A stretch of 32,000 nucleotides of DNA from the NCBI GenBank assembly GCA_002421785.1, contig DIRZ01000002.1, positions 60,001 through 92,000 of the forward strand. The letters run 5' to 3'. A model generated the notes under the pieces. The model was not told where the DNA came from. It worked only from the letters and a program-made list of their open reading frames with translations, and ran no database searches. Source of the stretch: Candidatus Saccharimonadota bacterium. GTDB taxonomy: Bacteria > Patescibacteriota > Saccharimonadia > Saccharimonadales > Saccharimonadaceae. Shown here piece by piece: positions 111 to 18,791 of the stretch (position 1 is its first letter; each line of letters opens with the position of its first letter). Both the position numbers and the translations under genes were made by a program.

Positions 111-118
<8 letters not shown>
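2..118 (+). CDS. atpA: C-terminal tail of F1 ATP synthase alpha subunit (partial, 5' end outside the window)
   Basis: Frame 2 is open from the window edge and reads ELLQKFRAEPVVEAAPVVTAPEPETKDKKHKKVEVKDA*, with TAG at 116-118. It lies immediately upstream of atpG-atpD-atpC, the canonical order. The visible part is a low-complexity tail, so the call rests on synteny. Confidence 0.45.
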
Positions 119-2670
<2,552 letters not shown>

Positions 2671-3702
2671 TTATTCCACCACGATATAATCAAATGCGTG
2701 CCCCGCTGGTGGGAGTGCGCCGTCGACGCTTATCGTGAAGCCTGCCGAGGTACGGTTGATGTACATGCCTGGTACCGGCCTCCCAACTGGTGTTACCACG
2801 ATATGTGGCGTAGCGCCATATTTTTGTACAAATGTTACCGATACCAACAGTCCGTTCCCTGCCCCTACGCCAGTGTTTACCGCAATTGTGCCACTCGTAT
2901 CATTTCCACTAATCGAAACTGTCCCATTGCTCCCGGCTGCGCCCCCCACGGCAACGCTCGGTGCGCTACCCGAACTAAGCAAATGCCCTGTCACCGTTAG
3001 CTGAGCCACTTGGAAGTTTCGCACGCTCAGCGCACCGCCAATCGCCAAGTTGCCGGCAACATTGAGGTTGTTGTTTATAGTCGTTAATTGATTCACCGTC
3101 AACTGGCCCTGTAGCTGGGTGTTACCCGCCACCTTCAGGTCCTTACGCAGATTTAATGTACTGATTGTGCCGTCACCATTCACGTTGAGCTGCTGGACCT
3201 GCGTATCGCCCGCCTGTAATTTCGCCAACGCCGCATCGCTCGCAGTAAACTTACTGTTAAGCTGCAACTGGCCGGCAATCGCAACATCACCACCCATTTT
3301 TACTGTTCCGTTAAAAATTGAATTCGGTCCTACAACGAGTTCTGTCTCGGCATTGCCCACAGGGTTGCGACTGACCCCTAACTGGTCCAGCGTCTCAGCG
3401 CTGAGCGTCACCCCATTACGGGCTGCCGTATCTTCAGCGGAGGCCTGGCCCCTGATCACCAACGAAATAATGACAGCATTCGCCGCTAGAATAAGCGCGA
3501 CAACCGTCAGCCCTATAAATGTAGCTTTGTGCGAAGGCCGATACGCAATGCGTCGCTTCTGGGGGGTAGTAGCGCCCACAGCTGAACCTATGTTTGTAGA
3601 AACAGTACTTTCTTCTACTGTTGCGCTCATATCTTCCTGTGTTTGAAGCGCCTCAGGTGCTGGGGCGTTCGATGCATCAGGTAATTTAGGGTCGTCACTC
3701 AT
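2671..3702 (-). CDS. Membrane-anchored surface protein with short beta-helix-like repeats and a possible lectin-like C-terminal domain
   Basis: 343 aa. After a Pro/Ala/Glu-rich N-terminus there is one TM helix (FIGLTVVALILAANAVIISLVI). Degenerate repeats follow (LNVNGDGTISTLNL / LKVAGNTQLQGQLTVNQL / LNVAGNLAIGGALSV). The C-terminus reads VSVTFVQKYGATPHIVVTPVG...NRTSAGFTISV. The function is unknown. Confidence 0.7.
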   Translation of the reverse strand: MSDDPKLPDASNAPAPEALQTQEDMSATVEESTVSTNIGSAVGATTPQKRRIAYRPSHKATFIGLTVVALILAANAVIISLVIRGQASAEDTAARNGVTLSAETLDQLGVSRNPVGNAETELVVGPNSIFNGTVKMGGDVAIAGQLQLNSKFTASDAALAKLQAGDTQVQQLNVNGDGTISTLNLRKDLKVAGNTQLQGQLTVNQLTTINNNLNVAGNLAIGGALSVRNFQVAQLTVTGHLLSSGSAPSVAVGGAAGSNGTVSISGNDTSGTIAVNTGVGAGNGLLVSVTFVQKYGATPHIVVTPVGRPVPGMYINRTSAGFTISVDGALPPAGHAFDYIVVE

Positions 3703-3790
3703 GTGTCTATTTCTACGTTATATATAAGTATAGTATATCGCTTACGCTCATAACTTGCAAAATTGTTATGGTTCACCCACAATGTGATAC

Positions 3791-4540
3791 ATGACCTGGG
3801 GCGTAATAGGTAGAGGACTCATCGTTGGTGCACTATGCACGTTGGTTGCCGTACCCATTGCCTTTGCAGAGACCCTTCAATCACCCAACTACCGCTTTAG
3901 TGAGCCGAGCGTTGGCGCAGGCAGCCTCAACCAGTCCAGCTCGGCGAGCTACATTGGACAGAGTGGCCTGGGCGACCTAGGTGTCGGCAATGCAGCTTCT
4001 TCCAACTTCCAGATTAACGCTGGATCAAAAACCAATCCCGATCCGACCCTTAGCGTTGCTATCACCTCAACATTAGCCGATTTTGGTAACTTTTCCGCCT
4101 CTACTCCCTCCACAGCGACTGCCAGTTTTACTGTCATCAACTATAGTAGCTATGGCTACGCCGTACAGCTAACCGGCTCGACTCCTACGTACAACGGCCA
4201 CTCCATTAGTCCCATGGCGACTACGGCCGCCTCGCAGCCGGGCACTGAACAGTTTGGTATCAATATGGTCGCTAACACATCACCAATTAGCTTCGGCGCC
4301 AATCCTAACAACGGTGATTTCGGATTTGGTGTGATTGGAAATGGCCCCGCTAGTCTTGACTATGCGCACTATTCCACGCCCAACCAGTTCCGCTATGTCA
4401 GTGGCGAAACCATCGCAAGTGCGCCCAAAAGTTCCGGAGCAACCCAGTATACCATCAGCTTTCTCACAAACGTCGCCGGGGTCACGCCTGGTGGCACCTA
4501 CGTCAGTAACCAGCTGCTCATCGTTACCGGTACTTACTAG
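3791..4540 (+). CDS. Secreted beta-rich protein, short paralog of the two downstream genes (WxL-like domain with Tyr replacing Trp)
   Basis: Signal peptide ending AFA|ETLQ. Motifs DFGNFSAS...FTVINYSSYGYAVQLTG, EQFGINMVAN and C-terminal GGTYVSNQLLIVTGTY align with the C-terminal halves of ORFs 4664-5875 and 5978-7120. Confidence 0.8.
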   Translation: MTWGVIGRGLIVGALCTLVAVPIAFAETLQSPNYRFSEPSVGAGSLNQSSSASYIGQSGLGDLGVGNAASSNFQINAGSKTNPDPTLSVAITSTLADFGNFSASTPSTATASFTVINYSSYGYAVQLTGSTPTYNGHSISPMATTAASQPGTEQFGINMVANTSPISFGANPNNGDFGFGVIGNGPASLDYAHYSTPNQFRYVSGETIASAPKSSGATQYTISFLTNVAGVTPGGTYVSNQLLIVTGTY

Positions 4541-4598
4541 TTATCCACAGATTTTGCACTCACTTCATTACCCCCCCGTAATTATCACCCAAACACTG

Positions 4599-4627
4599 TT
4601 GACAGGCTATACCGCTCATGGTATCAT
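4599..4627 (+). promoter_or_regulatory. Sigma70-type promoter for ORF 4664-5875
   Basis: TTGACA (4599-4604), a 17-nt spacer, then TGG-TATCAT (extended -10, hexamer 4622-4627). The predicted 5' UTR is about 30 nt, A-rich, with no clear Shine-Dalgarno. Confidence 0.6.
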
Positions 4628-4663
4628 CTCTAGTAGAAACCTTAAAAATAAAAAATATCCACC

Positions 4664-5875
4664 ATGAAAATACAAAAAACCACCACACTATTTCGCGCCC
4701 TAGGCGTGTTCTTGCTTGTCGCAGTTGTTGCCGCACAAGCACTATTACAAACCCCATCTGCTAATGCGGAGCAAATCGTCATACGGTCACTTAAGCTCGA
4801 AGCAGCCGACGTGAACCCGGGTGGTTTAAATGGTGGTTCACGCCCGAGTGGTGCGCTTCCAAACGTTAACTCAACTGCAAACCACAGCTTTACGTTCACA
4901 CTCCCCTCAGTCACCGCAACACCAGTGGGGTCGCTACTTTTCGAGTACTGCACCACTGCCGCGGACGTGGGTGGCGCGACCTGCGTGGCGCCAACTGGGC
5001 TGGATACGACTGCTGCGACTCTTGGCGCTACCACTGGTATTACTGGTCTTTCGATTGCCAATATCAGTACAAACTCTTATCGCCTTACCCGCTCCCCTGG
5101 TGCCGCATCAGCTGCGCCTGCAAATACCGTTGTAACTGCAACCGTTAAGGGCATTACTAACCCGTCAGTCCTCGGTACCTTCTATGTGCGAATCTCCAGC
5201 TACAACAGTCTCGACAACACCGGTGGTGCGATTGACCGTGGCACGGTAGCCGCCAGCACCGCCGACCCAATCGAACTGAGCGGGGTGATGCCCGAGTCGC
5301 TCGTCTTCTGTACTGGTGCGACCGTCGGTCTGACTACCGGACTTCCTGACTGCTCAACCGCAACCGATGGAATCATTGAATTCAACAAACTCTTCTCGCC
5401 AACCGATACAGCGTACTCACTCTCACAAATGGCAGCAAGCACCAACGCTGGTGCAGGCTATGTCATCACTGTCAACGGCCCAACACTTACCTCGGGTGGT
5501 AATAGTATCGCCGGCATGGCAACACCCGGAGTCAGCGCACGAGGAACCGCACAGTTCGGCATGAACCTCGTGGCTAACCCAGCTACGGTATCAACAGGTA
5601 TCGATGTCGTCACCGCACCGTTTACGATAGCAAGTGCAGACGTCGCACCTATCTCGAATGCTAGCAACTACCGTGGCCAGCCAGTGACCGACTACGGCAC
5701 CGCCAGCACCTTCAAGTTCCTCACAGGTGACCCTGTCGCAGCCAGCGACAACGGCGGCGCAGGCGCAACTGACGCACAGATTTACACTGTCAGCTACATC
5801 GCCAACGTACCAGGTAGCCAGCCTGCCGGTATCTATGCGACCACCCTCACGTACATCTGTACACCTACGTTCTAG
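4664..5875 (+). CDS. Secreted beta-rich surface protein, large paralog A (WxL-like C-terminal domain)
   Basis: 403 aa with a signal peptide ending ANA|EQIV. It shares long blocks with ORF 5978-7120 (LSGVMPESLVFCTGA...PDCSTAT.G.IEFN.LFSP.DTA...MAASTNA..GY.ITVNGPTL, .FGMNL.AN, and an identical C-terminus TLTYICTPTF). Confidence 0.85.
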   Translation: MKIQKTTTLFRALGVFLLVAVVAAQALLQTPSANAEQIVIRSLKLEAADVNPGGLNGGSRPSGALPNVNSTANHSFTFTLPSVTATPVGSLLFEYCTTAADVGGATCVAPTGLDTTAATLGATTGITGLSIANISTNSYRLTRSPGAASAAPANTVVTATVKGITNPSVLGTFYVRISSYNSLDNTGGAIDRGTVAASTADPIELSGVMPESLVFCTGATVGLTTGLPDCSTATDGIIEFNKLFSPTDTAYSLSQMAASTNAGAGYVITVNGPTLTSGGNSIAGMATPGVSARGTAQFGMNLVANPATVSTGIDVVTAPFTIASADVAPISNASNYRGQPVTDYGTASTFKFLTGDPVAASDNGGAGATDAQIYTVSYIANVPGSQPAGIYATTLTYICTPTF

Positions 5876-5897
5876 TTTACTCTTTCCCGGTTTCTCC

Positions 5898-5927
5898 GAA
5901 CTGCCGCTGCAACAACAGCGGTAGTTC
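5898..5927 (+). terminator. 12-bp stem-loop between paralog A and paralog B (partial terminator or mRNA-stabilising hairpin)
   Basis: GAACTGCCGCTG-caacaa-CAGCGGTAGTTC forms 12 pairs including one G.U, with a 6-nt loop. It starts 23 nt after the stop of ORF 4664-5875. The sequence that follows (GTGTATATTATGG) is U-containing but is not a clean U-tract. Confidence 0.4.
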
Positions 5928-5940
5928 GTGTATATTATGG

Positions 5941-5970
5941 TTGACCCGGCTGAAGTGCTTATGATACACT
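5941..5970 (+). promoter_or_regulatory. Promoter for ORF 5978-7120, predicting a leaderless mRNA
   Basis: TTGACC (5941-5946), an 18-nt spacer, then TGA-TACACT (hexamer 5965-5970). The ATG at 5978 is 7 nt after the -10. Confidence 0.5.
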
Positions 5971-5977
5971 GCTCTAT

Positions 5978-7120
5978 ATGAGAAGAGTGAGGGGTGTTGC
6001 ATACTTTTTGAGCGTATTATTAGTAGCGGTAAGCGTTACGGCAGTTTTCAGCGGGCCTGACGCATCAGCCGCCCAAATTACCGCTCGCAGCCTCACGCTC
6101 GTCGGCGTCACGGGTGTTGGTGGCTCGATGCCGGGCGGCAACGTCAACCATAAGTTTACCTTTACTATCCCTACCCTCGGTACTGCACTCGGTTCTGTCA
6201 AGTTTGAATATTGTACGATTGCTACAAAAGATGCTTGTGTTACACCGACCGGAATGGATGCGTCTATTATTACCGGGCTGAGCGACACCGGTTCCGGCGT
6301 GACTGGTTGGACCGTCCAGGCTGGCTCAACAGCCAACACGGTTATTGTCAGGCGCGCCGCAGCGAGCAACCCGGCGAGCGGCAATCTTGTTATTCAGCTC
6401 AACAACATCAAGAACACGACCGACGTCAACAAAACGTTTTTCGTGCGCATCACCACGCACAGTAGCCTTGACGGTACTGGCGCAATCGTGGACAGCGGAT
6501 CAGTTGCAGCCAGCACCGCCAACCCTATCCAACTAAGCGGTATCATGCCTGAAAGCCTTATCTTTTGTACGGGCGCTGACATCACCGTAAACGCCGGTGT
6601 GCCTGACTGTTCTACTGCAACTAGTGGCGTCATCGAATTTAACCAACTATTCTCGCCACAAGACACCGCGACGGCAGTTTCTAAAATGGCGGCGAGCACC
6701 AACGCATTTTCTGGGTATGCCATCACCGTCAATGGGCCAACGCTCGCTTCTGGGTCATCATCGATTCCCGCTATGGCATCAGGCGCTGCCGATGCCCCAA
6801 TTGCACGAACACGTGGTATCAGCGAATTTGGAATGAACCTTGCGGCCAACACCGTGGCGACCTCTACAACCCCAGTCGGTGCAGCGGTGAACCCTGTTCC
6901 AGACGGGCTCAACCTCCGCGGCCAAGCAGCGTCTGACTACTCAGTCGCCGATCAGTTTAAGTACTCAAACGGCGACATTGTTGCAGCCAGCGATAACGGT
7001 GGCCTTGGTCCAACAAATTCGCAACTCTACACGGTATCCTACATTGTCGACGTCGCCGGTAACTTGCTTGCTGGTACCTATAGCACCACACTAACCTATA
7101 TCTGTACTCCTACATTCTAG
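5978..7120 (+). CDS. Secreted beta-rich surface protein, large paralog B (WxL-like C-terminal domain)
   Basis: 380 aa with a signal peptide ending ASA|AQIT. It is roughly half identical by eye to ORF 4664-5875 across its full length and has the same C-terminal TLTYICTPTF. Confidence 0.85.
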   Translation: MRRVRGVAYFLSVLLVAVSVTAVFSGPDASAAQITARSLTLVGVTGVGGSMPGGNVNHKFTFTIPTLGTALGSVKFEYCTIATKDACVTPTGMDASIITGLSDTGSGVTGWTVQAGSTANTVIVRRAAASNPASGNLVIQLNNIKNTTDVNKTFFVRITTHSSLDGTGAIVDSGSVAASTANPIQLSGIMPESLIFCTGADITVNAGVPDCSTATSGVIEFNQLFSPQDTATAVSKMAASTNAFSGYAITVNGPTLASGSSSIPAMASGAADAPIARTRGISEFGMNLAANTVATSTTPVGAAVNPVPDGLNLRGQAASDYSVADQFKYSNGDIVAASDNGGLGPTNSQLYTVSYIVDVAGNLLAGTYSTTLTYICTPTF

Positions 7121-7123
7121 TTT

Positions 7124-8122
7124 ATGACTTTACACAAATTACCCACCATACTCGTATTATCAACACTCATTGCATCGGCCGTTGTCGCGCCGCTAACTGC
7201 CGCAGTGACAGCAACGCCCACCAACGACCAAGGCTTAGCGCTCGAAATTGCACCACCTGTCGTTAACTTCGCCGTCGAACCTGGCGAGACAATTGACTCG
7301 GAGATCGCAATTCGCGACGTATCAACGTCACCGCTTCTCGTCACAAGCGAGATCAATGACTTTACCGCCAGCGGCGATGAAGACGGTAACCCGAAAGTAC
7401 TCACTGACGCCACCGAAAAAAGCCCCTACTCCATCATCGATTGGGTAAGCCCATTCGAGCAGATGGCATTGGAGCCAAAACAGATCAAGAAGCTCGCCCT
7501 AAAGATTAAGGTTCCAGCCAACGCCGCACCTGGCGGCTACTACGGAGTGATCCGATTCACTGCAACGCCTCCCGATGGTGAAACAACCAGCGTGTCGCTC
7601 GCGCCAAGCCTAGGAGCCCTTGTCATGATCCGCGTTAAGGGCCAGGCAACTGAAAAACTAACTGTCAAAGAATTTTACATGACACAAAACGGCAAGAAAG
7701 GCACGTTCTTTGAAGGTATTCCTTTTGAGTTCGTTCAGCGACTCGAAAATGAAGGCAACGTGTACGAGCAGCCAACGGGACGCATCCTCATCAAAGACAT
7801 GTTCGGCAAGCCCGTAGCCAATGTCAACGTCAACGCAGACAGTCGTAACGTCCTTCCAGGAAGTATCCGTAAATTTACTCAGGAATTTGATAGTAAAGCG
7901 CTCGGCAATATAGGCCTATTCGGTAAGTACACAGCCGAGCTAAGCCTTAACTACGGAGATAAATTAACGACCGGGTCCAGCCTAACCTTCTGGGTTATTC
8001 CTTGGAAGCTCATCGCACTGGTGATTATAGGCCTTATCGCAGCCGTCGTTGGCATCCGTTACGCCTTCAAACGATACACTGATCGCATCGTTGGCAAGTC
8101 ACGTGGCTCACGCCGTCGCTAG
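7124..8122 (+). CDS. DUF916/DUF3324-like (WxL-interacting-protein / CscA-like) cell-surface protein with a C-terminal TM anchor
   Basis: 332 aa, starting 3 nt after the previous stop. It has a signal peptide, then LEIAPPVVNFAVEPGETIDSEIAIRDVSTSPLLVTSEINDF...DGNPKV, then W....MALEPKQIKKLALKIKVPANAAPGGYYGVIRF. The second domain reads LENEGNVYEQPTGRILIKD...VLPGSIRKF...GKYTAELSLNY. It ends with a C-terminal TM helix plus a basic tail (KSRGSRRR). This is the architecture I remember for the Firmicute DUF916+DUF3324 proteins of WxL loci. Confidence 0.75.
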   Translation: MTLHKLPTILVLSTLIASAVVAPLTAAVTATPTNDQGLALEIAPPVVNFAVEPGETIDSEIAIRDVSTSPLLVTSEINDFTASGDEDGNPKVLTDATEKSPYSIIDWVSPFEQMALEPKQIKKLALKIKVPANAAPGGYYGVIRFTATPPDGETTSVSLAPSLGALVMIRVKGQATEKLTVKEFYMTQNGKKGTFFEGIPFEFVQRLENEGNVYEQPTGRILIKDMFGKPVANVNVNADSRNVLPGSIRKFTQEFDSKALGNIGLFGKYTAELSLNYGDKLTTGSSLTFWVIPWKLIALVIIGLIAAVVGIRYAFKRYTDRIVGKSRGSRRR

Positions 8123-8135
8123 ATACACCTAATTA

Positions 8136-8144
8136 TGCTATAAT
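8136..8144 (+). promoter_or_regulatory. Extended -10 promoter for ORF 8151-9104, predicting a leaderless mRNA
   Basis: TGC-TATAAT (hexamer 8139-8144) is followed 6 nt later by ATG 8151. There is no good -35, which is consistent with an extended -10 promoter. Confidence 0.5.
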
Positions 8145-8150
8145 CAGCTT

Positions 8151-9104
8151 ATGCTAAAGCACTTGAAGCTGAGCCACCACGCCAATACCGGCAAAGTGCG
8201 GCCCCACGAACATACGTCATACCTTCCACTTGCCTTGGTATTGCTTGTCGTCGGTTTTATACTCACGACCTTCACGACATTTGCCTGGGAACGGCCGGGC
8301 CCAGCTTCCGAATCTGTCGGCCTATCGGGAGTTATGCCTGGTAGTCCCCCTACTGCTGCAGCGGTAATCAAAACGCCTACTACAGGCCAGCGCTTCACCC
8401 AAACCCCTATCACCGTGGCAGGTACCTGCCCCAAGGACACGCTAGTCGAGCTATTCAAGAATGATATTTTTGCCGGATCTGGTGTCTGTACCAGCGAGCA
8501 AACCTTTTCGTTTCAAATCGATCTCCTCATTGGCCAGAACCAACTTATCGCGCGCGTGTATGACGCCCTAAACCAGCAGGGGCCTGACTCTAACATTGTG
8601 ACGGTATTCTACGATGCCTCAAACGCCCAGGGCAGCCCGCTTACATCGCTTAATTTCGGCGGGCCACAGCTCATTATTAACACAGATGCGGTATTCCGTG
8701 GTGCCTTCCCCAACAAAGAGATGTCCATACCCGTTGATATCATCGGTGGTCGCGCGCCGTACGCGGTGAATATCCAGTGGGGTGACAGTACCAACAAAGT
8801 AATATCACGACCCGACAACGCCACCTTCCGCGAATCACACACCTACACCAAGGGCGGTACTTACCAGCTGGCAATTCAGGCAACCGACGCCGACGGCCGC
8901 GTCGCCTTTCTCACAGTAGCAAGTATCGTGAATGGTCAGCCCGACCCAGCTGTCGCCGCTATCGCCGACAACAAGGCAACCACTAACCTATTGCTCGCAC
9001 TGTGGCCGCTCTACGCCGCTACCTTTGCGGTTGTCGTCAGTTTCTGGATGGGCGAATGGCGCGAAAAACGCCTGCTCATCAAGCACGGTGTACTAGCAGC
9101 CTAA
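8151..9104 (+). CDS. Membrane protein with an extracytoplasmic Ig-like domain plus a PKD-like domain, flanked by N- and C-terminal TM helices
   Basis: 317 aa. N-terminal TM helix YLPLALVLLVVGFILTTFTTFAW. PKD-like signature IQWGDSTN...SHTYTKGGTYQLAIQATDADGRVAF. C-terminal TM helix LLLALWPLYAATFAVVVSFWMG. Confidence 0.8.
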   Translation: MLKHLKLSHHANTGKVRPHEHTSYLPLALVLLVVGFILTTFTTFAWERPGPASESVGLSGVMPGSPPTAAAVIKTPTTGQRFTQTPITVAGTCPKDTLVELFKNDIFAGSGVCTSEQTFSFQIDLLIGQNQLIARVYDALNQQGPDSNIVTVFYDASNAQGSPLTSLNFGGPQLIINTDAVFRGAFPNKEMSIPVDIIGGRAPYAVNIQWGDSTNKVISRPDNATFRESHTYTKGGTYQLAIQATDADGRVAFLTVASIVNGQPDPAVAAIADNKATTNLLLALWPLYAATFAVVVSFWMGEWREKRLLIKHGVLAA

Positions 9105-9264: not shown

Positions 9265-9400
9265 GGCGTATTAACACCCAGGAGATACTTCGCCTGGCTT
9301 CACCAGTGATCTCACTACTTTTAAAGTACTCACTAAAAAGCAAACGTAAGTCGGACCCACCATTAAAACAAAAAAACAAATCAGCTTGGCTGGTACGCTC

Positions 9401-12400
9401 ATGCGCGTGCTCTTCGTAAGTACCCTCCTTGTGGGTGTATTTATGGTTGTTCTGTCTGTGGCTCCCAAAGCACACGCCGCAACCAACCAACAAATGAATT
9501 TTCAAGGACGCCTCCTCAATGCACAGGGCGCCGTTGTTCCTGATGGCTTTTATAACATTCAGTTCAAGATATACCAGGATGGTACCGGCACTACTGCTGG
9601 CAACCCCGGGGGAACACTTGAGTGGACAGAAGATTGGCTGAACAGTGGCGGCAAGGGTGTGCAGGTGGTGAACGGGTATATGTCGGTGCAGCTTGGAAGC
9701 ATCAATCCTTTTGCGAGCCAAATCGACTGGAATTCTGACACCTTGTGGCTCAGCATGAACATTGGTAATACCAATGTCAGCTGTACGCCGTTTACGAGTT
9801 GTGCCCCTGATGGCGAAATGGTGCCTATGAAGCGCCTTTCTTCTGTTGCCTACGCGATGAATGCCACTATGCTCAACGGCAAGACCGCTGACAACTTCAT
9901 TCAAAATCAAAATAGCGCCGTTCAAGTAGCCGCCAATATCTGGATAGGCGGCACTACTCGTGCTGATACGGCAGTCCTCTCCCCTACTCTCGACACTGCT
10001 GATGCGACCACCCTCAGCATAGGCGCAACAAATGCAGTGAATGTCAGCATAGGCAAGTCGGCGGGCTCAATATCTCTTCATGCAAGTACGACAACTGTCG
10101 GTACCTCGGGTAGCGCGGCGACTATTAAGGGTGCCACACAAACCGCTGCTAACACTACAGGCGACACACTCACCATTAAGGGCTCAACGGGCAATGGAGC
10201 CGGTGCTGGCGGTCAGCTAGTCATCCAAGGGGGCGATGGCGGCGTAACGAACGGCGCAAATGGTGGTAGCCTATACCTCAGTGGCGGCACTGGCACGGGA
10301 AGTGGTGTCGATGGACTTGTCATCATGACAACCCCCACCTTTTCAACGACTACAAATGATGTAAATTGCTACACCGGAGGGTCCCTTGTGGCATCGAACT
10401 GTACTATTAGTTCAACCTCTATCAATAGTTCATCGGCAGTCATTATTGGCTTCTCTAATGGGGAAAGGACCGCGACACTACCGGATCCTACGATTCTCAC
10501 CGCAGGTCGCGTTATATACATCACTGCCGCAAACGGGTCTAGTGATTTCACGCTAAGCGCTAATGGCGGCGGATTGGGTAACCAGATTGCTATGCGCCAA
10601 AACTCATCTGCTACCATGATTTGGAATGGTAATGACTGGACCGCAGCTGGCGCATCGAGCTCCACGACCCTACAAAGCGCCTACGATAATACCCTGCAAA
10701 GTGCCGGCGGCGCAGAATTGATTGTCAGTAAAACCTCAACGACCAATGGATTAACGATTCGCGACAGCTCTACCAATCCCGTAAATGGAACGGTTATGAG
10801 CATCCAGACGTCGTCAGCTGCCGGGCTGCTATCTGTAAACGGGAATGTAGCCGAATACTCGACCAACAGCGGCGCCGAGGTAGCTGGAGTGAGTGCGACT
10901 ACATTCCCAGCAAACACCTGGCTCCCGATCAGTGGTGCGACAGTCGCTCGCCACACCACTGCTGGAGACTACATTGCAACCGGAAAAGGCTCGACATCGG
11001 TTTTGACAAGCACAACCGCAGGAAGTGGCGTTCGTAACCGCTTGAGCACCGCATTAGTACCAAACATGACATACAACGTTTCATTTGGAACACGACTCTT
11101 AGCCGGGAGCTTCAGTGATCTCCAAGTTTACTATTCAGCAGACGGCTCAGCAGCCTCCGCTCCTTGCACAACAACTAAATCACCCGTGACAAGCATTTGG
11201 ACAAAGATAAACTGTACCTTCGTGGCACCGGCATCTGGAATAGTGGCAGATAACTCTATACTCATCAGACAAGCCAGCTCCGGGACGGCACGCACATTCT
11301 ATGTAGATAATCTCAGCGTCACCGTTGCTGCTGACTTTAATTATGCAACCGATGGAAGTGCTAATGACGGTGATAACTTTACTTCCAACTGGTCATTCGT
11401 CAATGCAACCTCTGGGGCGGGCTCGATTACGCGTAGCACAACCGATGGAGAGGATGCCAGTGATAGCGCACAGGTCACACTAACCACCGGTGCGGCTAAT
11501 GCCGGTATTCGCAACCGCCTTTCCGTCAATCCGCTCCCATCCACACTGTACCGCATGACCGCCTACGCAAAGGTAACCTCAGGAACCTTTACTAATTTCA
11601 AAATTCGTTATTCACCAGATGGCAGCACCGGCTCATCGGGGAACTATACTGATTGTGTCGACTATAATACTCGCACGCTCACGACAACGACATGGACAAA
11701 GATTACGTGTTTCGTTCAAACAAGCAGTACGCCAGCCACAAACCCCCATGCCTACTTTGTTGAAGAGTCAGCTCAAGCGCGCACGTTCCGCGTGGACGCC
11801 TTTACCATGACTCTCACGACCAATACCGCGTCAAACGTACAAATAGGCGGTGGCGAAAATGGTGGCCCGACTACTCTCTTAACACTGGATAAGGCTGCTT
11901 CTGCTCCAATCGCAATCAATAACGATGCGCTCCTCGGTTCGATGTACTATGACACGACACTCGGCAAGCTGCAATGCTATGAGGCAGATGGATGGGGCGC
12001 CTGCGGCTCTAGCCCTGACACCATCGTCACGATTTCTCCAGAATTCACGAATGCAGTACTGCATGGAACGGGTATCGGAACCATGGTTTCAGACCTCTGC
12101 TCAGACACTCTCAATATCAATGATGGATCATCGGGACAGCCAAACGTCTGTGGGACAAATGAGACATTTAACTTTTATAGGTGGACTTCTCCGCAGCCAA
12201 GTGCACAAACATACGGCGTATACGTTACGTATCAGCTGCCGGCAAGCTTCAAGAGCTTCGAGTCTGGCTCCACATCGATAATCGGAAGAACCGACAGCGC
12301 AAACTCTACTATGGAGTATCAGGTGTTTCGCGATGACTCGTCTACTGGCCTCACTACTTGTGGACCGGCCGTCCTGGTGTCCTCTGGAGTTGTGTCGTCA

Positions 12401-12550
12401 TGGCAGCCTGGCCTAGCCACAGGTACAGCCGATCCATCAACTTGCGGATTCGTACCGGGCAACAGTATCGTTTTTCGAATAAATGTAACAGCAAGTCAAA
12501 ATGCAAACGCGTATATTGGCAACCTGAACTTCAAGTTTAGCAACAAATAG
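9401..12550 (+). CDS. Large secreted fibre/adhesin-like protein with two tandem CBM-like (carbohydrate-binding-module-like) domains
   Basis: The ORF is open from TTG 9386. I prefer ATG 9401 (MRVLFVSTLLVGVFMVVLSVAPKAHA|ATNQ, a classic signal peptide). The N-terminal module reads MNFQGRLLNAQGAVVPDGFYNIQFKIYQDG. A Gly/Thr/Ala-rich beta-helix-like stretch follows. Two modules of about 160 aa end in FYVDNLSVT (about 11298-11324) and FRVDAFTMT (about 11787-11813). The C-terminal domain contains LGSMYYDTTLGKLQCYEADGWGACG. Confidence 0.85.
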   Translation: MRVLFVSTLLVGVFMVVLSVAPKAHAATNQQMNFQGRLLNAQGAVVPDGFYNIQFKIYQDGTGTTAGNPGGTLEWTEDWLNSGGKGVQVVNGYMSVQLGSINPFASQIDWNSDTLWLSMNIGNTNVSCTPFTSCAPDGEMVPMKRLSSVAYAMNATMLNGKTADNFIQNQNSAVQVAANIWIGGTTRADTAVLSPTLDTADATTLSIGATNAVNVSIGKSAGSISLHASTTTVGTSGSAATIKGATQTAANTTGDTLTIKGSTGNGAGAGGQLVIQGGDGGVTNGANGGSLYLSGGTGTGSGVDGLVIMTTPTFSTTTNDVNCYTGGSLVASNCTISSTSINSSSAVIIGFSNGERTATLPDPTILTAGRVIYITAANGSSDFTLSANGGGLGNQIAMRQNSSATMIWNGNDWTAAGASSSTTLQSAYDNTLQSAGGAELIVSKTSTTNGLTIRDSSTNPVNGTVMSIQTSSAAGLLSVNGNVAEYSTNSGAEVAGVSATTFPANTWLPISGATVARHTTAGDYIATGKGSTSVLTSTTAGSGVRNRLSTALVPNMTYNVSFGTRLLAGSFSDLQVYYSADGSAASAPCTTTKSPVTSIWTKINCTFVAPASGIVADNSILIRQASSGTARTFYVDNLSVTVAADFNYATDGSANDGDNFTSNWSFVNATSGAGSITRSTTDGEDASDSAQVTLTTGAANAGIRNRLSVNPLPSTLYRMTAYAKVTSGTFTNFKIRYSPDGSTGSSGNYTDCVDYNTRTLTTTTWTKITCFVQTSSTPATNPHAYFVEESAQARTFRVDAFTMTLTTNTASNVQIGGGENGGPTTLLTLDKAASAPIAINNDALLGSMYYDTTLGKLQCYEADGWGACGSSPDTIVTISPEFTNAVLHGTGIGTMVSDLCSDTLNINDGSSGQPNVCGTNETFNFYRWTSPQPSAQTYGVYVTYQLPASFKSFESGSTSIIGRTDSANSTMEYQVFRDDSSTGLTTCGPAVLVSSGVVSSWQPGLATGTADPSTCGFVPGNSIVFRINVTASQNANAYIGNLNFKFSNK

Positions 12551-12578: not shown

Positions 12579-15500
12579 ATGCTACATGTGCGAAGCATTT
12601 TGAGACGTGTGCGTCACTTTGTTCTAGTATCCCCCGTGCGTAGGTTCGCCCTACTGGGTGCTATTTCTGTGCTAATATTAGCCGGCGCCGCACTAGTTAT
12701 TTCTCCACTTCTTTCTAAAAAACCCTATGACCTAGGGCGATCAGCAAAACTACTGACTAATCCGAATAGCCGCATAGCCGGCCAGCTCACGTATGATAAA
12801 GGGTCTTTATCGTTTAACTATAAACAACCCGAACAGGTTAATGGCGAGGCAAATAAAGACATTGAGGCTTCTTTTAATGAGAATATTAGCCAAGGCTTTA
12901 GCGTCAAAGATACAGTCAACGACGTAAGCTTTGGTATGAAGGCTAAAGACAACCACATGGTTGGTCGTCAAGATGAAAACCGCGTTGTCTATCCATTATC
13001 AACTGGGGACGGTTGGACAATATATACAATACAGAAAACCGGTATTAAGGAAGACATTATCCTGACCGAATCGAAACAAGACACACGAGAATTCTCGTAC
13101 GAGCTTGTCTTGAATGATGGGCTTGAGCCAAGAATTGAAAAGGACGGTGGACTTGGTGTGTACGGAAACACGCTTCTTAGTGGCGATATTACCGCCACGT
13201 CAAACGAAGATGTGGAGCTACTAAAAAAAGCTCGACAAAGTGCCGATAAAAATACCTTGCTGTTCAAGATACCCGCCCCCATAGTTCTCGAATCCGGAGG
13301 AAATGAGTCTGAGTACGCCCGTGCGAAGTTTAGCCTATCTGACAACATTCTTACCGTCACGACCACTGGGCTATCTAGAGCGAACTACCCGTTATCTATT
13401 GACCCTAGTATCTATGTAACCAGTGCCCGTGAGTTTATGGCTGGAAATAACGAAACGAACATCGACTTTAACGTAGATGAGCAACTTATCCAAAAATCAC
13501 CGACCACTGGCGCGCGATTCGACCAATGGGATGATACACTATCCCTCCCTGTTGCAACCTCTGCCAATGGTGTAGCAGCTGCCGGTGGATATGTATATTC
13601 GATTGGCGGACGATCATTCCTAGGGCAAGCATTTAATACCCAGGGCGCCGAAACTTTTGTCGTCCCTACCGGTGTTACGAGTATTTCTGTAAAAGTTTGG
13701 GGTGCAGGTGGTGGTGGTGGTGGTGGTGGTGGTTCTACCGGTACTGGAGGCAACGGAGCTGGCGGTGGGTATGTGACAGCCAATGTACCCGTAACTCCAG
13801 GGGAGACGCTCAGTGTCTATGTTGGCGGTGGTGGAAATGGTGGCAATAACGTATCAAACACTGGTAGCGGTGGCGGTGGTGGTGGCTACACGAGTATTTA
13901 TCGTGGGAGCACGCCGCTGGTCATCGCCGCTGGCGGAGGAGGAGGGGGGGGCTCTCGCATCTCGAGGAATGGAGCCGATGGGGGCGCCGGGGGCGGTACA
14001 ACCGGAATTATTGGGGCCACGGTATACAACAACAACGGTGACGGTGGTGGTCCGGGTACACCGACTGCTGGTGGTGGTGGTGGACAAGGTGGAAACAACT
14101 CGGGCGGTGCCGGTTCGTCACTCACGGGAGGCCTCGGCGCCGATGGCCGTAGTGCCACAACTGGCGCTGATGGTGGTGGTGGCTTTGGTGGACTAGCAAG
14201 CGGTGGTGCCGGTGGGCTCGCAAACGTTAACACAACTCGTGCTGCTGGTGGTGGTGGTGGCGCTGGGTACTTTGGTGGTGGTGGTGGTGGCGCCACCTCA
14301 AGTACAACCAACTCATCAGGTGGTGGTGGTGGTGGCGGCTCTAGCTATACGGCAGGCGGCCTGAGTGGAGTAGCCAATAACGCTGGTAGCGGCGTTAACC
14401 CGGGTAATGCTGCTGACCCTGCTCGCAATGGAGCGGGTCAAGGTGGCGGTGGTGGTGCGGGAGGTCAGGGTGGCACAAACGGCGCAAACGGCGCGGTATT
14501 TATTGCCTACGGCTCAGGCACTGAAGTGTCAAAAAATGTCAGCTGGGCAGAGTTCAACTCCGCAACGGGTGAAGTTCAGAGCGCTAACCCCGGGTCAGGT
14601 ACTTGTGCCGGGTGGTGTTCTTCTAACGACTACTCGCTTCCTTCAGAGCGCAGTAACTTCTCACTCGTCGCGTATAGCGGCTACCTCTACGCGATTGGTG
14701 GTGTCGATGCTTCGGGTACCCGAACCAACACTGTCTACATCGCGAAGATTGGCGCCAACGGTGAGCCTCGCCTATGGCACCCCACAGATACCAATCCAGA
14801 CAACTGGGTTTACTGGTACCAAGACGCCAACCTCACATCGGTCCGCTCAGATTTTACCGCAACCGCCTACAATAATCGGCTCTACCTTATCGGTGGCCGC
14901 AGCTCATCTGGTCCGGTCTCTACTGTTGAAATAGCCGATATCACCCCAACAGGGAAATTAGGTGCCTGGTCAGCATCTACTGCGCTCCCTTCTAACGTTT
15001 ATGGTCATGGTGCAGCTATTTATAATGATAGAATTTATGTGCTCGGCGGCTCTAATAGCATAGGAGGCGCTCCTTCGAACACTGTTCGCTACAACAAAAT
15101 TAACACAGATGGAACTCTCAATAATTGGGTCCAAACTACCAATCTGCCGCAAGGACGATTCACCGGCGGAGGTACCATGGCAGCTATCTGGGGGGCCTAT
15201 ATCTACGTCAGTAGTGGGTGTAGTACTGTCAATGGTAGTGGATATTGCACTGGAGTACATTCCAATATTCAACTGGCAAGTATCAATGCCGACGGGAGCC
15301 TTGACGCCTGGAATACTGTCGGTACAGCGGTTGACGAACGACTTGGCGGCAACTTACTCTCCTGGCGTGGTCATTTATACCGAGTGGGCGGGTGCAGCTC
15401 TCAAAACGCCTCTACTGGCGATTGCGGTGCTGCCACTCTTGACTTAATTCGTGTTGGTAAAATAAACCGCGACGGCGATGCTTCAACGGTGGGTGAATCG

Positions 15501-18500
15501 TTTGCTAGCGGCAGTGGAGACTGTACAGGGGGTAACCCATCGCAGTGTAACCTGCCCGGCACAACATATGTCGGTAATATGCTGACAAACAGCTTTATTT
15601 ACAACGGGCACCTCTACATTACCGGCGGATGCACGAACAATGCCTGTAGTTCGACAAGCAACGACGTCGTCTACGCCGCCATCGATACCAATGGCTCTAT
15701 GACTCGCCCTGCAACCTGTAACGGCTCATATGTGGGTGGCTCATGGTGTTATCTCGCCAATGTCCTCCCCAGTGGAGTAGCGGCATCGAGCCCCGTTACA
15801 TTTGGCGGATACGTATACTTAGTAGGAGGACTCACAGGGAGCGCTAATACAAACACCCTGTTGCGAGCCCAACTCAATAGCGACGGCTCGATAGGCGCAT
15901 GGTTATCACAGTCTATGACGGGGGTAGGCGCAGCCAACGTTTCCTACCTATACGCGTACGCCAGAGCAAATCCATCCGCTGTCGCGACTAACCCGGGGAA
16001 CCTGTTCATATTTGGAGGATGCACCAGTTCGAGTTCAGCCGGATGCACTGCGTATACTCAAAATGTCTCTAAGTGTAGCATCGCCAGCGATGGCTCCGTC
16101 AATGGCTGTTCGACCAGTGGACAACTCCAGGTCGGTACAGTACCTGGTGCAACTGGTGTAGGTATCGGTATTATGAGTGGAACAGTGTACGCCAACTATA
16201 TTTACCTCATAGGCGGTGTGGCGCCTGGGCTTGTCGATATGAAAACAGTTCGGTATGCTCGGTTCGACAATAACAATAATGTCGTCGCCGCTAGTGGATC
16301 CAGCTGGACAGAATCACCAAACCAAATGGAAATCGGACGTAGGCGCACCGCAGCTTTCGGATACAACGGCTACATTTACGTCGCTGGCGGGTTCGAAGCA
16401 GGCGGTGGCGGCGTTATCGCAGACATCGAGTTTATTAAAGTCAACGTGAGCGATGGAAGCCTCGGCGACGCGACCGATGGCTTTACGACATCTGAAGTGA
16501 AGATTAACCAACGATGGGGATTGACTCTAGCCGTCTCAAACTCATATGCCTATGTCATAGGGGGCTGTACGATTGGCGATAGCCCTGGAGCATGTACTAC
16601 GCGCACGGATACTATCCAGACGTTCCAGATCTATAACAACGTTAGTGGCGCGCCAGCCGGCTACAGCAATGCCGCAAATACCTATGCCACTAACCCTAAC
16701 CGTCTTGGTGCTACTAGCACTGTGCTAAACGGTCGTCTTTACACCGCAGGAGGTTGCGTCAGCACCACAGACTGTACCAATGCGGTCAACACCGTTTCGT
16801 ATGCACCTATCGACGTCAACGGCAATCTCGGTACGTGGTCAAATACTACAGCCAACCTGCCAGCTGATCGCGCATGGGGCAAGATACTTAACGCTGGCGG
16901 TTCGCTATATTATATTGGTGGCCAAGGTGACGCGGCATCCGATCGTCGCGCCGAAGTATACTATGCAACTCCAGCGGGTAGTGGCAACGTGACAACCTGG
17001 GGAACTGCCTCTAACGGATTACCGAACGCCCGTACAAAATTTGGTGCAGCCAGCTGGAACAATCGCTTATATGTCGTTGCCGGTGAAGGCACGGCCGGGA
17101 CGTGCACAAGCAACCTATGCAGCGACGTCTATGTTAGTCCACAACTAAACAATGGCGGAAACATCACCAGTGCGTGGTCAACAAGCGGTCCGGGTGTCAA
17201 TACCGGTCGCAGTGGTGCTACAGTCACAGCCTACGCGAACAATCTTTATATGTTTGGGGGCTTTGCAGGATCGGGCAATTATCATTCTGATAGTCAATAC
17301 GCACAGATCAACCCATCTACAGGGCTCGTTGGTAGCTGGACGTATTCTGCAAGCCTTCCTAAGCCAATCGGGTTCGCCAATTCGTATGCAGCCAATGGGT
17401 ATATGTACCTCGTCGGGGGGCGAACGTCGGAAGGATCCTGTGAACCGACGACTATGGTTGCTCCAATCAGCGCAAACACCACTATCGCCACTGGAAATAG
17501 CCCAACAGGCATCGGCGCGTGGTACGAAGCCAACCAGAAATATTCCAATTCACGCTACGGAGCTAGCGCTGCCTACTATGATGGAAAAGCCTACTTAGCT
17601 GGTGGTGCCTGTAACGCTGCAACCGCACCAACTGTCGCATCGGCCACAACCACAAATACCGGCGCAGGATTTGCTTCAGACAGCACCACTCATAATGTAG
17701 CCATGCCTGGCACAACAGCGGCTGGCGACTTACTCTTGATGTTCTTTAGCTACGACAGCAACTCAAACCCAACGGTTACCGATCCAGATGGAGCTGGTGG
17801 CTGGACAGAGCTTGCATCAGTTAACAGTGCCACTAACGGCGCTCATGGTTCCGTCTGGGCCAAAGTAGCGACTGGGAGCGACGGCGCGACGGTCAACTTT
17901 GCAACGTCTAATTCACAAAGTGCCGCTGCGCGAGTCTACCGTATACTGGCAGGTGAATGGCACGGTGACCTAACTGGTGTCGAGGTAGCCAGCGGTACTG
18001 GATCGACTACCGCAAGCCCCGATCCACCGACACTCACGCCATCATGGGGTAAAACTGATAACCTATGGTTTGCCTATGCAGCCGGCGGCACACATACTGG
18101 CGTCTCGAGCTATCCAACCAATTATACTAGTGGCGCACACGCAAGTGGCAACACCGGCACCAATGGCGCCAGCGTGGCAACAGCTTATCGCGCGAACAAT
18201 ACGGCGAGTGAGGACCCCGATGCTTTCACCATGGCGAGCAGCCAAACCAGTGTCGCTTTTACGGTTGCAGTCCGCCCAGCTCCTCCTGTGCTCACCTACG
18301 CTGGTGCCAACGAGGTTCAGCAAACTGCGCTGCTCTCGCAACCGCAAATCGCACGCTACTCACTCCTAATGGATACCGACACCGATGTCTATCCCAATGC
18401 ATGGCTCATGAACGGCATCGACAACTCGGTTGGCGCAAACTGGCAATTAAAGTATCGTTCAATGACAAATCCTACCACCTATTGTGTCTCGCCAGCTATG

Positions 18501-18791
18501 ACCACATGGGGGCAGGAAACCGTTTTTGGTAACGTCACCCTTGGGCTACCTGGGGTATACACGCCTAAAAATGGGGCTGGCGCAAACACCGATTGTGCTC
18601 GCTACTTCTTCTTTAACGTCTCGGTAGACAGCTCGCAGGCGTATGGCTATCCAGACGACGTCACGCGCGGACCTACGATTGACAGCCTTTCGTTACAGTT
18701 CACCGGTGATCCATCAAAACGATTAATGCATGGGCGAACATTTACTGGGGGCTTGCAGCAGCCCATTGATACACCATACTATGGACAATAA
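12579..18791 (+). CDS. Giant (2070 aa) N-terminally membrane-anchored surface protein: glycine-rich (ALK/LTK-type Gly_rich-like) domain plus about 18 Kelch-like propeller blades plus C-terminal beta-rich domains
   Basis: TM helix FALLGAISVLILAGAALVISPLL. The Gly-rich module reads FVVPTGVTSISVKVWGAGGGGGGGGGS...GGGYVTANVPVTPGETLSVYVGGGGNGG...PLVIAAGGGGGGG. About 18 repeats have the form (Y/F)xxxxY(I/V/L)xGG, for example YSGYLYAIGG, YNNRLYLIGG, YNDRIYVLGG and NGYMYLVGG. Confidence 0.9.
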   Translation: MLHVRSILRRVRHFVLVSPVRRFALLGAISVLILAGAALVISPLLSKKPYDLGRSAKLLTNPNSRIAGQLTYDKGSLSFNYKQPEQVNGEANKDIEASFNENISQGFSVKDTVNDVSFGMKAKDNHMVGRQDENRVVYPLSTGDGWTIYTIQKTGIKEDIILTESKQDTREFSYELVLNDGLEPRIEKDGGLGVYGNTLLSGDITATSNEDVELLKKARQSADKNTLLFKIPAPIVLESGGNESEYARAKFSLSDNILTVTTTGLSRANYPLSIDPSIYVTSAREFMAGNNETNIDFNVDEQLIQKSPTTGARFDQWDDTLSLPVATSANGVAAAGGYVYSIGGRSFLGQAFNTQGAETFVVPTGVTSISVKVWGAGGGGGGGGGSTGTGGNGAGGGYVTANVPVTPGETLSVYVGGGGNGGNNVSNTGSGGGGGGYTSIYRGSTPLVIAAGGGGGGGSRISRNGADGGAGGGTTGIIGATVYNNNGDGGGPGTPTAGGGGGQGGNNSGGAGSSLTGGLGADGRSATTGADGGGGFGGLASGGAGGLANVNTTRAAGGGGGAGYFGGGGGGATSSTTNSSGGGGGGGSSYTAGGLSGVANNAGSGVNPGNAADPARNGAGQGGGGGAGGQGGTNGANGAVFIAYGSGTEVSKNVSWAEFNSATGEVQSANPGSGTCAGWCSSNDYSLPSERSNFSLVAYSGYLYAIGGVDASGTRTNTVYIAKIGANGEPRLWHPTDTNPDNWVYWYQDANLTSVRSDFTATAYNNRLYLIGGRSSSGPVSTVEIADITPTGKLGAWSASTALPSNVYGHGAAIYNDRIYVLGGSNSIGGAPSNTVRYNKINTDGTLNNWVQTTNLPQGRFTGGGTMAAIWGAYIYVSSGCSTVNGSGYCTGVHSNIQLASINADGSLDAWNTVGTAVDERLGGNLLSWRGHLYRVGGCSSQNASTGDCGAATLDLIRVGKINRDGDASTVGESFASGSGDCTGGNPSQCNLPGTTYVGNMLTNSFIYNGHLYITGGCTNNACSSTSNDVVYAAIDTNGSMTRPATCNGSYVGGSWCYLANVLPSGVAASSPVTFGGYVYLVGGLTGSANTNTLLRAQLNSDGSIGAWLSQSMTGVGAANVSYLYAYARANPSAVATNPGNLFIFGGCTSSSSAGCTAYTQNVSKCSIASDGSVNGCSTSGQLQVGTVPGATGVGIGIMSGTVYANYIYLIGGVAPGLVDMKTVRYARFDNNNNVVAASGSSWTESPNQMEIGRRRTAAFGYNGYIYVAGGFEAGGGGVIADIEFIKVNVSDGSLGDATDGFTTSEVKINQRWGLTLAVSNSYAYVIGGCTIGDSPGACTTRTDTIQTFQIYNNVSGAPAGYSNAANTYATNPNRLGATSTVLNGRLYTAGGCVSTTDCTNAVNTVSYAPIDVNGNLGTWSNTTANLPADRAWGKILNAGGSLYYIGGQGDAASDRRAEVYYATPAGSGNVTTWGTASNGLPNARTKFGAASWNNRLYVVAGEGTAGTCTSNLCSDVYVSPQLNNGGNITSAWSTSGPGVNTGRSGATVTAYANNLYMFGGFAGSGNYHSDSQYAQINPSTGLVGSWTYSASLPKPIGFANSYAANGYMYLVGGRTSEGSCEPTTMVAPISANTTIATGNSPTGIGAWYEANQKYSNSRYGASAAYYDGKAYLAGGACNAATAPTVASATTTNTGAGFASDSTTHNVAMPGTTAAGDLLLMFFSYDSNSNPTVTDPDGAGGWTELASVNSATNGAHGSVWAKVATGSDGATVNFATSNSQSAAARVYRILAGEWHGDLTGVEVASGTGSTTASPDPPTLTPSWGKTDNLWFAYAAGGTHTGVSSYPTNYTSGAHASGNTGTNGASVATAYRANNTASEDPDAFTMASSQTSVAFTVAVRPAPPVLTYAGANEVQQTALLSQPQIARYSLLMDTDTDVYPNAWLMNGIDNSVGANWQLKYRSMTNPTTYCVSPAMTTWGQETVFGNVTLGLPGVYTPKNGAGANTDCARYFFFNVSVDSSQAYGYPDDVTRGPTIDSLSLQFTGDPSKRLMHGRTFTGGLQQPIDTPYYGQ
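13707..13733 (+). repeat. (GGT)9 in-frame trinucleotide microsatellite encoding Gly9
   Basis: Nine perfect GGT codons in the giant gene's reading frame. Shorter (GGT)4-5 tracts lie near 14070-14084, 14242-14256, 14275-14289 and 14319-14333. Confidence 0.9.

Follow-up and report, generated by a model that had tools for sequence, protein, structure and literature searches.

What kind of surface structure is encoded by a block of five genes in the genome of a Candidatus Saccharimonadota bacterium (assembly GCA_002421785.1)? The genes lie one after the other in the stretch of contig DIRZ01000002.1 that we analysed (32,000 nucleotides (nt), positions 60,001 to 92,000 of the forward strand; hereafter the window). 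A preliminary description, made from the sequence alone, took them for a divergent Csc/WxL-type cell-surface complex, in which three paralogous secreted proteins would carry a WxL domain with tyrosine in place of tryptophan and a fourth protein, of 332 amino acids (aa), would be a WxL-interacting protein (WxLIP). The locus is real and coherent, but it already has an explanation: the block is very probably a compact form of the Pam pilus operon of a Saccharimonadia bacterium within the Candidate Phyla Radiation (CPR, Patescibacteria). Pam is a CPR-specific pilus of ultrasmall parasites, based on donor-strand exchange, and as a named system it already has NCBIfam models.

Identification of the five-gene block

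The genes were read from the translated open reading frames (ORFs) of the window. Their position on one strand, their lengths and the gap of 3 nt before the 332-aa gene are as the preliminary description had them. The immunoglobulin-like (Ig) fold of the fourth product was assigned from its AlphaFold2 (AF2) model. The five products are as follows.

3791..4540, + strand: PamT (249 aa), single-domain tip pilin, acceptor without a donor strand; NCBIfam NF058579 CPR_pilus_PamT
4664..5875, + strand: two-domain Pam pilin of 403 aa in the PamA position; NF058581 at residues 236-403, linker motif
5978..7120, + strand: two-domain Pam pilin of 380 aa in the PamE position; NF058581 at residues 216-380, conserved length
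7124..8122, + strand: two-Ig-domain membrane-anchored chaperone of the PamC/D type (332 aa); AF2 model, Foldseek, hhalign
8151..9104, + strand: PamR (317 aa), RbmA-like anchor/terminator with a C-terminal transmembrane helix; NCBIfam NF058578 CPR_pilus_PamR

When the five proteins were scanned against Pfam, no above-threshold match was obtained for any of them. NCBIfam release 20, which holds named models for the tip, the anchor and the pilin C-terminal domain, identified the 249-aa protein as PamT (255.7 bits, cut-off 240) and the 317-aa protein as PamR (348.2 bits, cut-off 300). In addition, the domain Pam_pilin_C (NF058581, cut-off 55) was found in all three paralogs, with 142.4 bits in PamT (E 1.1e-41), 135.0 bits in the 403-aa protein (E 2.1e-39) and 122.8 bits in the 380-aa protein (E 1.2e-35). 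Because PamT and PamR pass the NCBIfam equivalog cut-offs and Pam_pilin_C is present in all three paralogs, the block was assigned to the Pam system, and every feature of that system that could be looked for here was found in it. The PamR gene had been described as coding for a PKD-domain membrane protein; its translation does have a hydrophobic segment at the C-terminus, whereas PKD appears only as a sub-threshold Pfam match (E 0.02-0.04).

The Pam pilus was described in Ca. Mycosynbacter amalyticus, where electron cryomicroscopy (cryo-EM) showed filaments of two pilins, PamA and PamB, linked by donor-strand exchange (bioRxiv 10.64898/2026.03.03.709456); donor-strand exchange and filament structure are known only for these two proteins of that organism. 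According to the same preprint, the operon also encodes PamE (pilin-like), PamT (a single domain, at the tip), PamR (an RbmA-like membrane anchor) and the PapD/FimC-like chaperones PamC and PamD, each having a transmembrane helix at the C-terminus, and ATP synthase genes adjoin it. The order in the window, PamT-pilin-pilin-chaperone-PamR, is the order of the M. amalyticus accessions, PamT-PamA-PamE-PamD-PamR.

A scan of one genome per GTDB species yielded 142 relatives of the chaperone, and 80 loci were retained for synteny. All 80 belong to Saccharibacteria/Saccharimonadales, the closest with 76% identity; M. amalyticus is not one of them. Essentially every locus of sufficient length starts with the ATP synthase genes for alpha, gamma, beta and epsilon, continues with a minus-strand gene of 343 aa, and then has PamT, one to five large pilins, the chaperone, PamR, a protein like the 1054-aa product of the window and often another like its 2070-aa product. 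The distance from the last pilin gene to the chaperone gene has a median of 3 nt in 68 loci. It is clear that the block keeps its order in Saccharimonadia relatives, a point which the preliminary description had proposed to check. A PamR identical to that of the window, likewise flanked by the 380-aa and 332-aa genes, was also found in the JGI metagenome 3300001592 (contig Draft_10000022, 255,924 bp), as well as in SRR943317 and SRR943319; the window probably comes from this population.

The large pilins and their linker

The relationship of the three secreted proteins, noticed from the sequence alone, was confirmed. Full-length comparison of the two large pilins gives 49% identity (E 2e-110), and PamT is 33% identical to the C-terminal half of the 403-aa pilin (139 aa, E 2e-15). 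Signal peptides are visible in the translations. Both large pilins terminate in TTLTYICTPTF, so that the common end TLTYICTPTF is present in both, as are the cysteine pairs FCTGA...PDCSTAT and EYC...C; PamT ends in ...LLIVTGTY. The cysteines are residues 96/107/216/230/399 of the 403-aa pilin and 79/87/197/211/376 of the 380-aa pilin. Four of the five cysteines of each protein form the two obvious pairs; the fifth (Cys399 at 5858-5860, Cys376 at 7103-7105) lies in the invariant strand TLTYICTPTF, and the family consensus offers it no conserved partner. This cysteine may be free, make an inter-subunit bond or be modified.

Among 149 large pilins, the top-conserved stretches are the C-terminal strand GTYTTTLTYICT, the segment TATSQMAASTNA of the C-terminal domain and the inter-domain linker GTMPESLvFCTG, which in the 403-aa pilin appears as ELSGVMPESLVFCTGA and begins at residue 205; it occupies residues 205-216 there and 186-197 in the 380-aa pilin. 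In the preprint, the donated linker and its binding site are likewise the best-conserved parts of the pilins (bioRxiv 10.64898/2026.03.03.709456). The linker was traced with a hidden Markov model (HMM), since a strict regular expression missed most homologues. The HMM matched 152 of 154 pilins, no PamT and no chaperone; among 69 PamT homologues there was no match at an independent E-value (i-E) below 0.01. Of 74 weak non-pilin matches, 51 were N-termini of PamR. In PamR of the window, the N-terminal post-anchor segment (residues about 57-70, window 8319-8360) reads SVGLSGVMPGSPP and resembles the pilin linker PIELSGVMPESLV. This distribution of the HMM matches is in keeping with a scheme where PamT accepts only, the pilins accept and donate, and PamR donates only and then anchors. 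The conservation of the linker and its absence from PamT indirectly support polymerisation by donor-strand exchange in this organism too.

The slot of the 403-aa pilin is variable in relatives (311-451 aa; usually two large pilin genes per locus, with a range of 1-5), and that of the 380-aa pilin keeps its length, mostly 366-395 aa. The 403-aa protein is probably the major shaft subunit and the 380-aa protein probably a base or adaptor subunit. The PDB was searched by sequence, both with family profiles and with the 403-aa and 332-aa proteins, and no relevant match was obtained; the PamA/PamB structures are perhaps absent there, or too divergent.

The tip subunit and the search for a WxL domain

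In the AF2 model of PamT the folded domain comprises residues 87-249. Its best-ranked Foldseek matches in the PDB are almost all donor-strand subunits: TasA, the PapG pilin domain (target-normalised TM-score 0.60), Csu, FimF/G/A and CfaB. The top match is TasA (8aur, E 1.9e-3, TM-score about 0.33). Chaperone-usher pilins had been named beforehand as the outcome that contradicts a WxL domain, and these, with TasA, are what the fold search returned. The segment before the folded domain (residues 27-82, window 3869-4036) is disordered in the prediction, with a predicted local distance difference test (pLDDT) of 33-38, yet well conserved in 38 homologues. It has three loose S-x-N-[YF] repeats, each followed by a Gly-rich turn (QSPNYRF..., SSASYIG..., SSNFQIN...), and could be a host-binding segment or a self-complementing strand.

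Could the three paralogs still be WxL proteins? Tyrosine variants of the WxL domain would then bind peptidoglycan non-covalently, the 332-aa WxLIP would hold them, and no filament would be formed. The arrangement of genes has something to offer to this explanation, as a small subunit, large subunits and a two-Ig transmembrane protein also make up the WxL clusters (PMC10599100), and the C-terminal strand of the pilins, G-x-Y-x-x-T-L-T, resembles motif 2 of WxL-like proteins. However, the Tyr-for-Trp domain was an interpretation rather than an observation, and no test that we ran supports it. There is no tryptophan at either WxL motif position in the three paralogs, and the WxL family PF13731 matches neither the three paralogs (E<=1) nor any of 38 PamT-family members (E<=10).

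Profile-profile comparison led to the same result. We made a WxL profile from the small WxL proteins of Paenibacillus (19 proteins, Paenibacillus only) and then broadened it with actinobacterial WxL-like proteins from DUF916 loci; both versions are without the canonical Enterococcus and Lactobacillus WxL sequences. A profile of the Pam C-terminal domain (223 sequences) matched the Paenibacillus profile over 13 columns of the C-terminal strand only (E 0.021). With the broadened profile, a collinear full-length alignment was obtained at low threshold (score 26.1, P 0.0025, Prob 11.8%), in which 'GY' is paired with 'GW' and both C-terminal motifs are paired too. It was rejected on the controls: column shuffles scored up to 15.5, 8-column block shuffles up to 23.3 and reversal 12-13, and after deletion of the C-terminal strand from both profiles the score fell from 26.1 to 10.1. 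Since the score collapses without that strand, the signal shared by Pam and WxL proteins is G-x-Y-x-x-T-L-T on the last strand only. No WxL chain is among the 50 best PDB fold matches listed for PamT, the best of which are themselves weak. Finally, the orthologous proteins of M. amalyticus were seen by cryo-EM as filaments, and WxL clusters have no PamR. Although distant homology links the 332-aa protein to DUF916/WxLIP proteins and its top fold match in the PDB is a WxLIP (see below), we regard a peptidoglycan-bound WxL complex as very unlikely. The WxL label is very probably wrong for the three paralogs; for the 332-aa protein it is right in the sense of distant homology.

The chaperone and its relation to WxLIP

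The family of the 332-aa protein is large and well conserved, with 946 matches, all unannotated and all from Saccharibacteria. The AF2 model, based on an alignment of 36 sequences (mean pLDDT 80.5), bears out the layout proposed for this protein: a signal peptide, two beta-sandwiches, a C-terminal helix (residues 294-327) and a basic tail. The loop at residues 79-113 is conserved in sequence and disordered in the model. When the model was compared with the PDB by Foldseek, rank 1 was taken by 9i25_C, 'WxLIP from Enterococcus faecium locus A bound to long WxL' (E 2e-10); further matches were RbmA (5e-10), another WxLIP (9i1y, 2e-9) and the chaperone-usher chaperones Caf1M, CfaA, SafB, DraB and FimC (E 7e-9 to 4e-7).

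These last matches, together with those of PamT to chaperone-usher pilins, raise the question of whether a classical chaperone-usher pilus, or a sortase-dependent one, was gained from another phylum. This is most improbable. Among the 11 window products scanned with Pfam there was no usher-like match; no sequence similarity to FimC, FimA, FimF, FimG, FimH or FimI was detected (E at least 0.03), and the chaperone is anchored in the membrane. A sortase substrate is not suggested by pilins that end in ...TPTF or ...TGTY, with neither LPXTG nor a C-terminal anchor, and all 80 loci retained from the genome scan are from Saccharimonadia.

The 332-aa protein had been compared with proteins of the DUF916+DUF3324 type, and the first half of this proposal found support. 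The best Pfam family of the protein is WxLIP_PGBD (PF06030), whose score of 21.1 bits stays below the threshold of 27.3. The same family ranks first in 27 of 36 members of the chaperone family, always sub-threshold, with a best E of 5.5e-5. DUF3324 (PF11797, WxLIP_HBD) was found in 0 of the 36 at E<=0.1, and this half of the proposal is not borne out by Pfam. Searching plasmids by tblastn, we retrieved annotated DUF916 genes in Paenibacillus (E 2e-5, 69% coverage) and unannotated relatives in Deinococcus (E 3e-5).

Stronger evidence came from hhalign. The profile of the CPR chaperones was compared with four annotated DUF916 proteins (Pfam-confirmed in both that were scanned) and one Deinococcus relative, giving E-values of 2.2e-10 for Clavibacter (269 columns, transmembrane helix included), 6e-9 for Deinococcus, 2.5e-8 for Paenibacillus, 3e-8 for Streptomyces and 4.8e-6 for Arthrobacter. 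The controls were negative: E. coli FimC gave 0.056, PamR of the window 0.2 and Ig-rich giant proteins more than 0.03, and in 20 shuffles of each of two DUF916 proteins E was at least 0.057. The ectodomain without the transmembrane helix still gave 5e-8. Domain 1 bears most of the signal (2.4e-7), and domain 2 is collinear and weak (best 1.2e-4). From these profiles we place the Pam-type chaperone, as a distant member, in the DUF916/WxLIP lineage, with homology at the superfamily level; by sequence it stands nearer to this lineage than to the classical PapD-like chaperones. Its neighbours are Pam pilins, not PF13731 proteins. The link between chaperone and WxLIP is mentioned neither in the Pam preprint, which has no WxL and no DUF916, nor in the literature searched, where WxL is tied neither to chaperone-usher nor to Pam systems. 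This homology is what remains new in the locus, and it hints at a possible shared origin of the two systems.

Several points weigh against taking the block for a Pam pilus operon. There is one chaperone and two large pilins here vs PamC+PamD and PamA+PamB+PamE in M. amalyticus, and the 403-aa protein was assigned to PamA and the 380-aa protein to PamE by position only. The pilus of this organism is predicted from its genes, and the source of the Pam description is an unreviewed preprint (bioRxiv 10.64898/2026.03.03.709456). The E-values of the PamT fold matches are weak (best 1.9e-3) and the TM-scores all modest; those of the 332-aa protein are also modest (0.3-0.5), as would be expected for two-domain proteins with differing hinge angles. 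None of the matches that liken the PamR N-terminus to the linker of the pilins reaches significance by itself (best i-E 0.28). For the 332-aa protein there is neither a matching NCBIfam model nor sequence-level similarity to FimC (E 0.056), and its role as a chaperone thus rests on fold, architecture and context.

A model for assembly and comparison with known systems

With family identities, folds, synteny and motif distribution established, we infer an order of assembly, an action of the chaperone, a role of PamR and a contact with the host. All five products would be exported by Sec. The 332-aa chaperone would stay held in the membrane by its C-terminal helix and act in the manner of PapD, donating a strand that completes the open, strand-deficient Ig-like C-terminal domain of each pilin. 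PamT, with an acceptor domain and no donor linker, would form the distal tip, from which the filament starts; after it, the 403-aa pilin and next the 380-aa pilin would join by donor-strand exchange, the linker of each (…LSG[VI]MPESL[VI]FCTG…) entering the C-terminal domain of the preceding subunit. In the end, the linker-like N-terminal strand of PamR would enter the last pilin, stop growth and tether the filament through its own C-terminal helix. The pilus would probably make the first contact with the host bacterium.

The window shares with the Pam system of M. amalyticus the two-domain pilins with paired cysteines, the two-Ig chaperone with its transmembrane anchor, the gene order, the ATP synthase neighbour and the class Saccharimonadia. 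It differs in having one chaperone and two large pilins, in a first pilin of 403 aa where PamA has 55 kDa, and in the 1054-aa fibre-like and 2070-aa Kelch proteins directly after PamR; the pilus of this lineage is also predicted from genes. Chaperone-usher pili (Pap, Fim, Caf1, CFA/I, Csu) have similar folds of chaperone and pilin, the same donor-strand logic and a tip subunit without a donor strand. By contrast, no usher was found here among the 11 window products scanned, there is no outer membrane, sequence profiles show no similarity to these pili (E >= 0.03), and the chaperone is membrane-anchored; moreover, each pilin has an additional beta-sandwich at its N-terminus and takes its donor strand from an internal linker instead of an N-terminal extension. 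TasA of Bacillus subtilis, the top fold match of PamT, is a donor-strand-linked fibre in a monoderm, but it polymerises without a dedicated two-Ig chaperone, and the match is weak and without sequence similarity.

In chaperone-usher systems, a strand that fills the gap of a subunit parallel to one of its own strands is the geometry of donor-strand complementation. WxL clusters encode small WxL proteins, consisting of the domain only, and large ones with additional N-terminal domains, together with WxLIP, which has two perpendicular Ig-like domains and a transmembrane helix; AF2 predicts that a hairpin of WxLIP closes a gap of the WxL sandwich, lying parallel to one of the WxL strands (PMC10599100). 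In comparison with the WxL/Csc clusters of Firmicutes (PMC10599100, PMC9772566, PMC1534035; PDB 9i25, 9i1y), the chaperone has the layout of WxLIP including the signal peptide, transmembrane helix and basic tail, and both kinds of cluster have one single-domain subunit and larger subunits with the same C-terminal domain. In both, a strand of the two-Ig protein is predicted to enter the subunit. On the other hand, the Pam subunits have no PF13731 match and no Trp-x-Leu pair and are alike in no part other than the C-terminal strand, WxL proteins are taken to be bound to peptidoglycan and no filaments of them are known, and WxL clusters are without a PamR-like anchor.

One explanation of these likenesses is that a single system of monoderms, with an anchored chaperone and strand-completed subunits, gave rise both to Pam pili and to the WxL/Csc clusters found in Firmicutes and Actinobacteria, so that WxLIP would correspond to PamC/D. 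The homology of the chaperone to DUF916 proteins, with negative controls, and 9i25_C as its top fold match are consistent with this. So are the predicted strand of WxLIP in the WxL sandwich (PMC10599100), placed as in donor-strand complementation, the corresponding loop of the 332-aa protein (residues 79-113; conserved, and disordered in the model), the parallel gene architectures and the C-terminal strand motif common to both types of subunit. Against it, homology of the Pam C-terminal domain to the WxL domain could not be demonstrated by sequence or fold, the similarity in chaperone domain 2 is weak (best E 1e-4), WxL proteins are not known to polymerise, and the chaperone could have been recruited independently to unrelated subunits. 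We put a common origin forward tentatively, as possible but on balance doubtful.

DUF916-type loci outside the CPR

DUF916-type loci occur in Firmicutes, in Actinobacteria, which are hosts of Saccharibacteria, and in Deinococcus. Downstream of the DUF916 gene of Paenibacillus there is first a small WxL gene and then a large gene with RCC1 and a C-terminal WxL domain, all confirmed with Pfam. The neighbours of the chaperone homologues in Deinococcus, Clavibacter, Cellulosimicrobium, Streptomyces, Arthrobacter and Cohnella have no significant similarity to the Pam pilin domains.

On actinobacterial plasmids, DUF916 genes are flanked by other secreted proteins, including large LamG proteins (loci L003, 6101-7915; L085, 5115-10270; L086, about 3500-6870; L087, 5272-6849). 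One neighbour is a small protein with the WxL-like motifs V-x-D-x-R...GW and a C-terminal G-x-Y-x-x-T-L-T-L; the single small actinobacterial protein scanned, from Clavibacter, gave no match to Pfam WxL. The Streptomyces locus has an unannotated 677-aa GH43-like ORF with a terminal WxL-like domain. On the Deinococcus plasmid NZ_CP140100 (locus L002, 5848-11533), a 272-aa chaperone-like protein without a transmembrane helix (E 6e-9 vs the CPR family) has unannotated secreted proteins, of 293 and 181 aa, encoded on either side, and a 1090-aa Ig-rich protein is encoded downstream of it. The end of the 293-aa protein, ...KLTGTF, recalls ...IVTGTY of PamT; in a profile comparison no significant similarity was found.

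Neighbouring genes and candidate regulatory elements

The remaining features of the locus are as follows.

111..2670, + strand: ATP synthase gamma, beta and epsilon genes; from translations, conserved left neighbour
2671..3702, - strand: 343-aa membrane-anchored protein, divergent from PamT; neighbour in 67 related loci
4599..4627, + strand: promoter-like site before the 403-aa pilin gene; TTGACA-17-TATCAT, extended TG, 11/12, a consensus match only
5897..5928, + strand: terminator- or attenuator-like hairpin after the 403-aa gene; 13-bp stem with 8 GC pairs, then a U-rich tail
9386..12550, + strand: 1054-aa secreted fibre/adhesin-like protein; follows PamR in 76 related ORFs
12579..18791, + strand: 2070-aa giant surface protein, Gly-rich and with Kelch repeats; downstream in the majority of long loci

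The 343-aa protein has matches to bactofilin, to adhesive domains and to beta-helix-like proteins, all weak, and may be the 'tail fibre-like' neighbour of the preprint. The 1054-aa protein matches CBM_4_9 (E 9e-06) and, weakly, Bdello_MAT_N, the N-terminal domain of the Bdellovibrio mosaic-adhesive-trimer proteins; the 2070-aa protein matches Kelch families (E 1e-30) and has long poly-Gly tracts. Both may be adhesins that are shown with the pilus or on it.

The hairpin after the 403-aa gene is strong, with z = -4.8 and a minimum free energy, over 70 nt, of -25.2 kcal/mol. Of 68 related loci, 38% have a hairpin of z<-2 behind the first pilin gene, with stem sequences that differ. The hairpin and the promoter-like site suggest separate control of the dosage of the major pilin, which would fit high expression.

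Significance

The locus itself is a further instance of a widespread system described in 2026; about 70 species of Saccharimonadia have these genes in one and the same order. Of the layouts, the compact one with five genes may be the more frequent, and its simplicity would recommend it for attempts to reconstitute assembly. Through the homology of its chaperone to WxLIP, the Pam system acquires a relative that can be detected beyond the CPR, and this homology bears on the question of "evolutionary origins" which the Pam preprint left open; DUF916 loci are common, too, in the host phylum of Saccharibacteria, the Actinobacteria. If the common origin were true, WxLIP would be a donor-strand chaperone or assembly platform and not a protein that binds peptidoglycan or the host, and WxL proteins might form donor-strand-linked assemblies. 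The WxL/Csc clusters of enterococci, listeriae and lactobacilli could then be reinterpreted as machines of donor-strand complementation.

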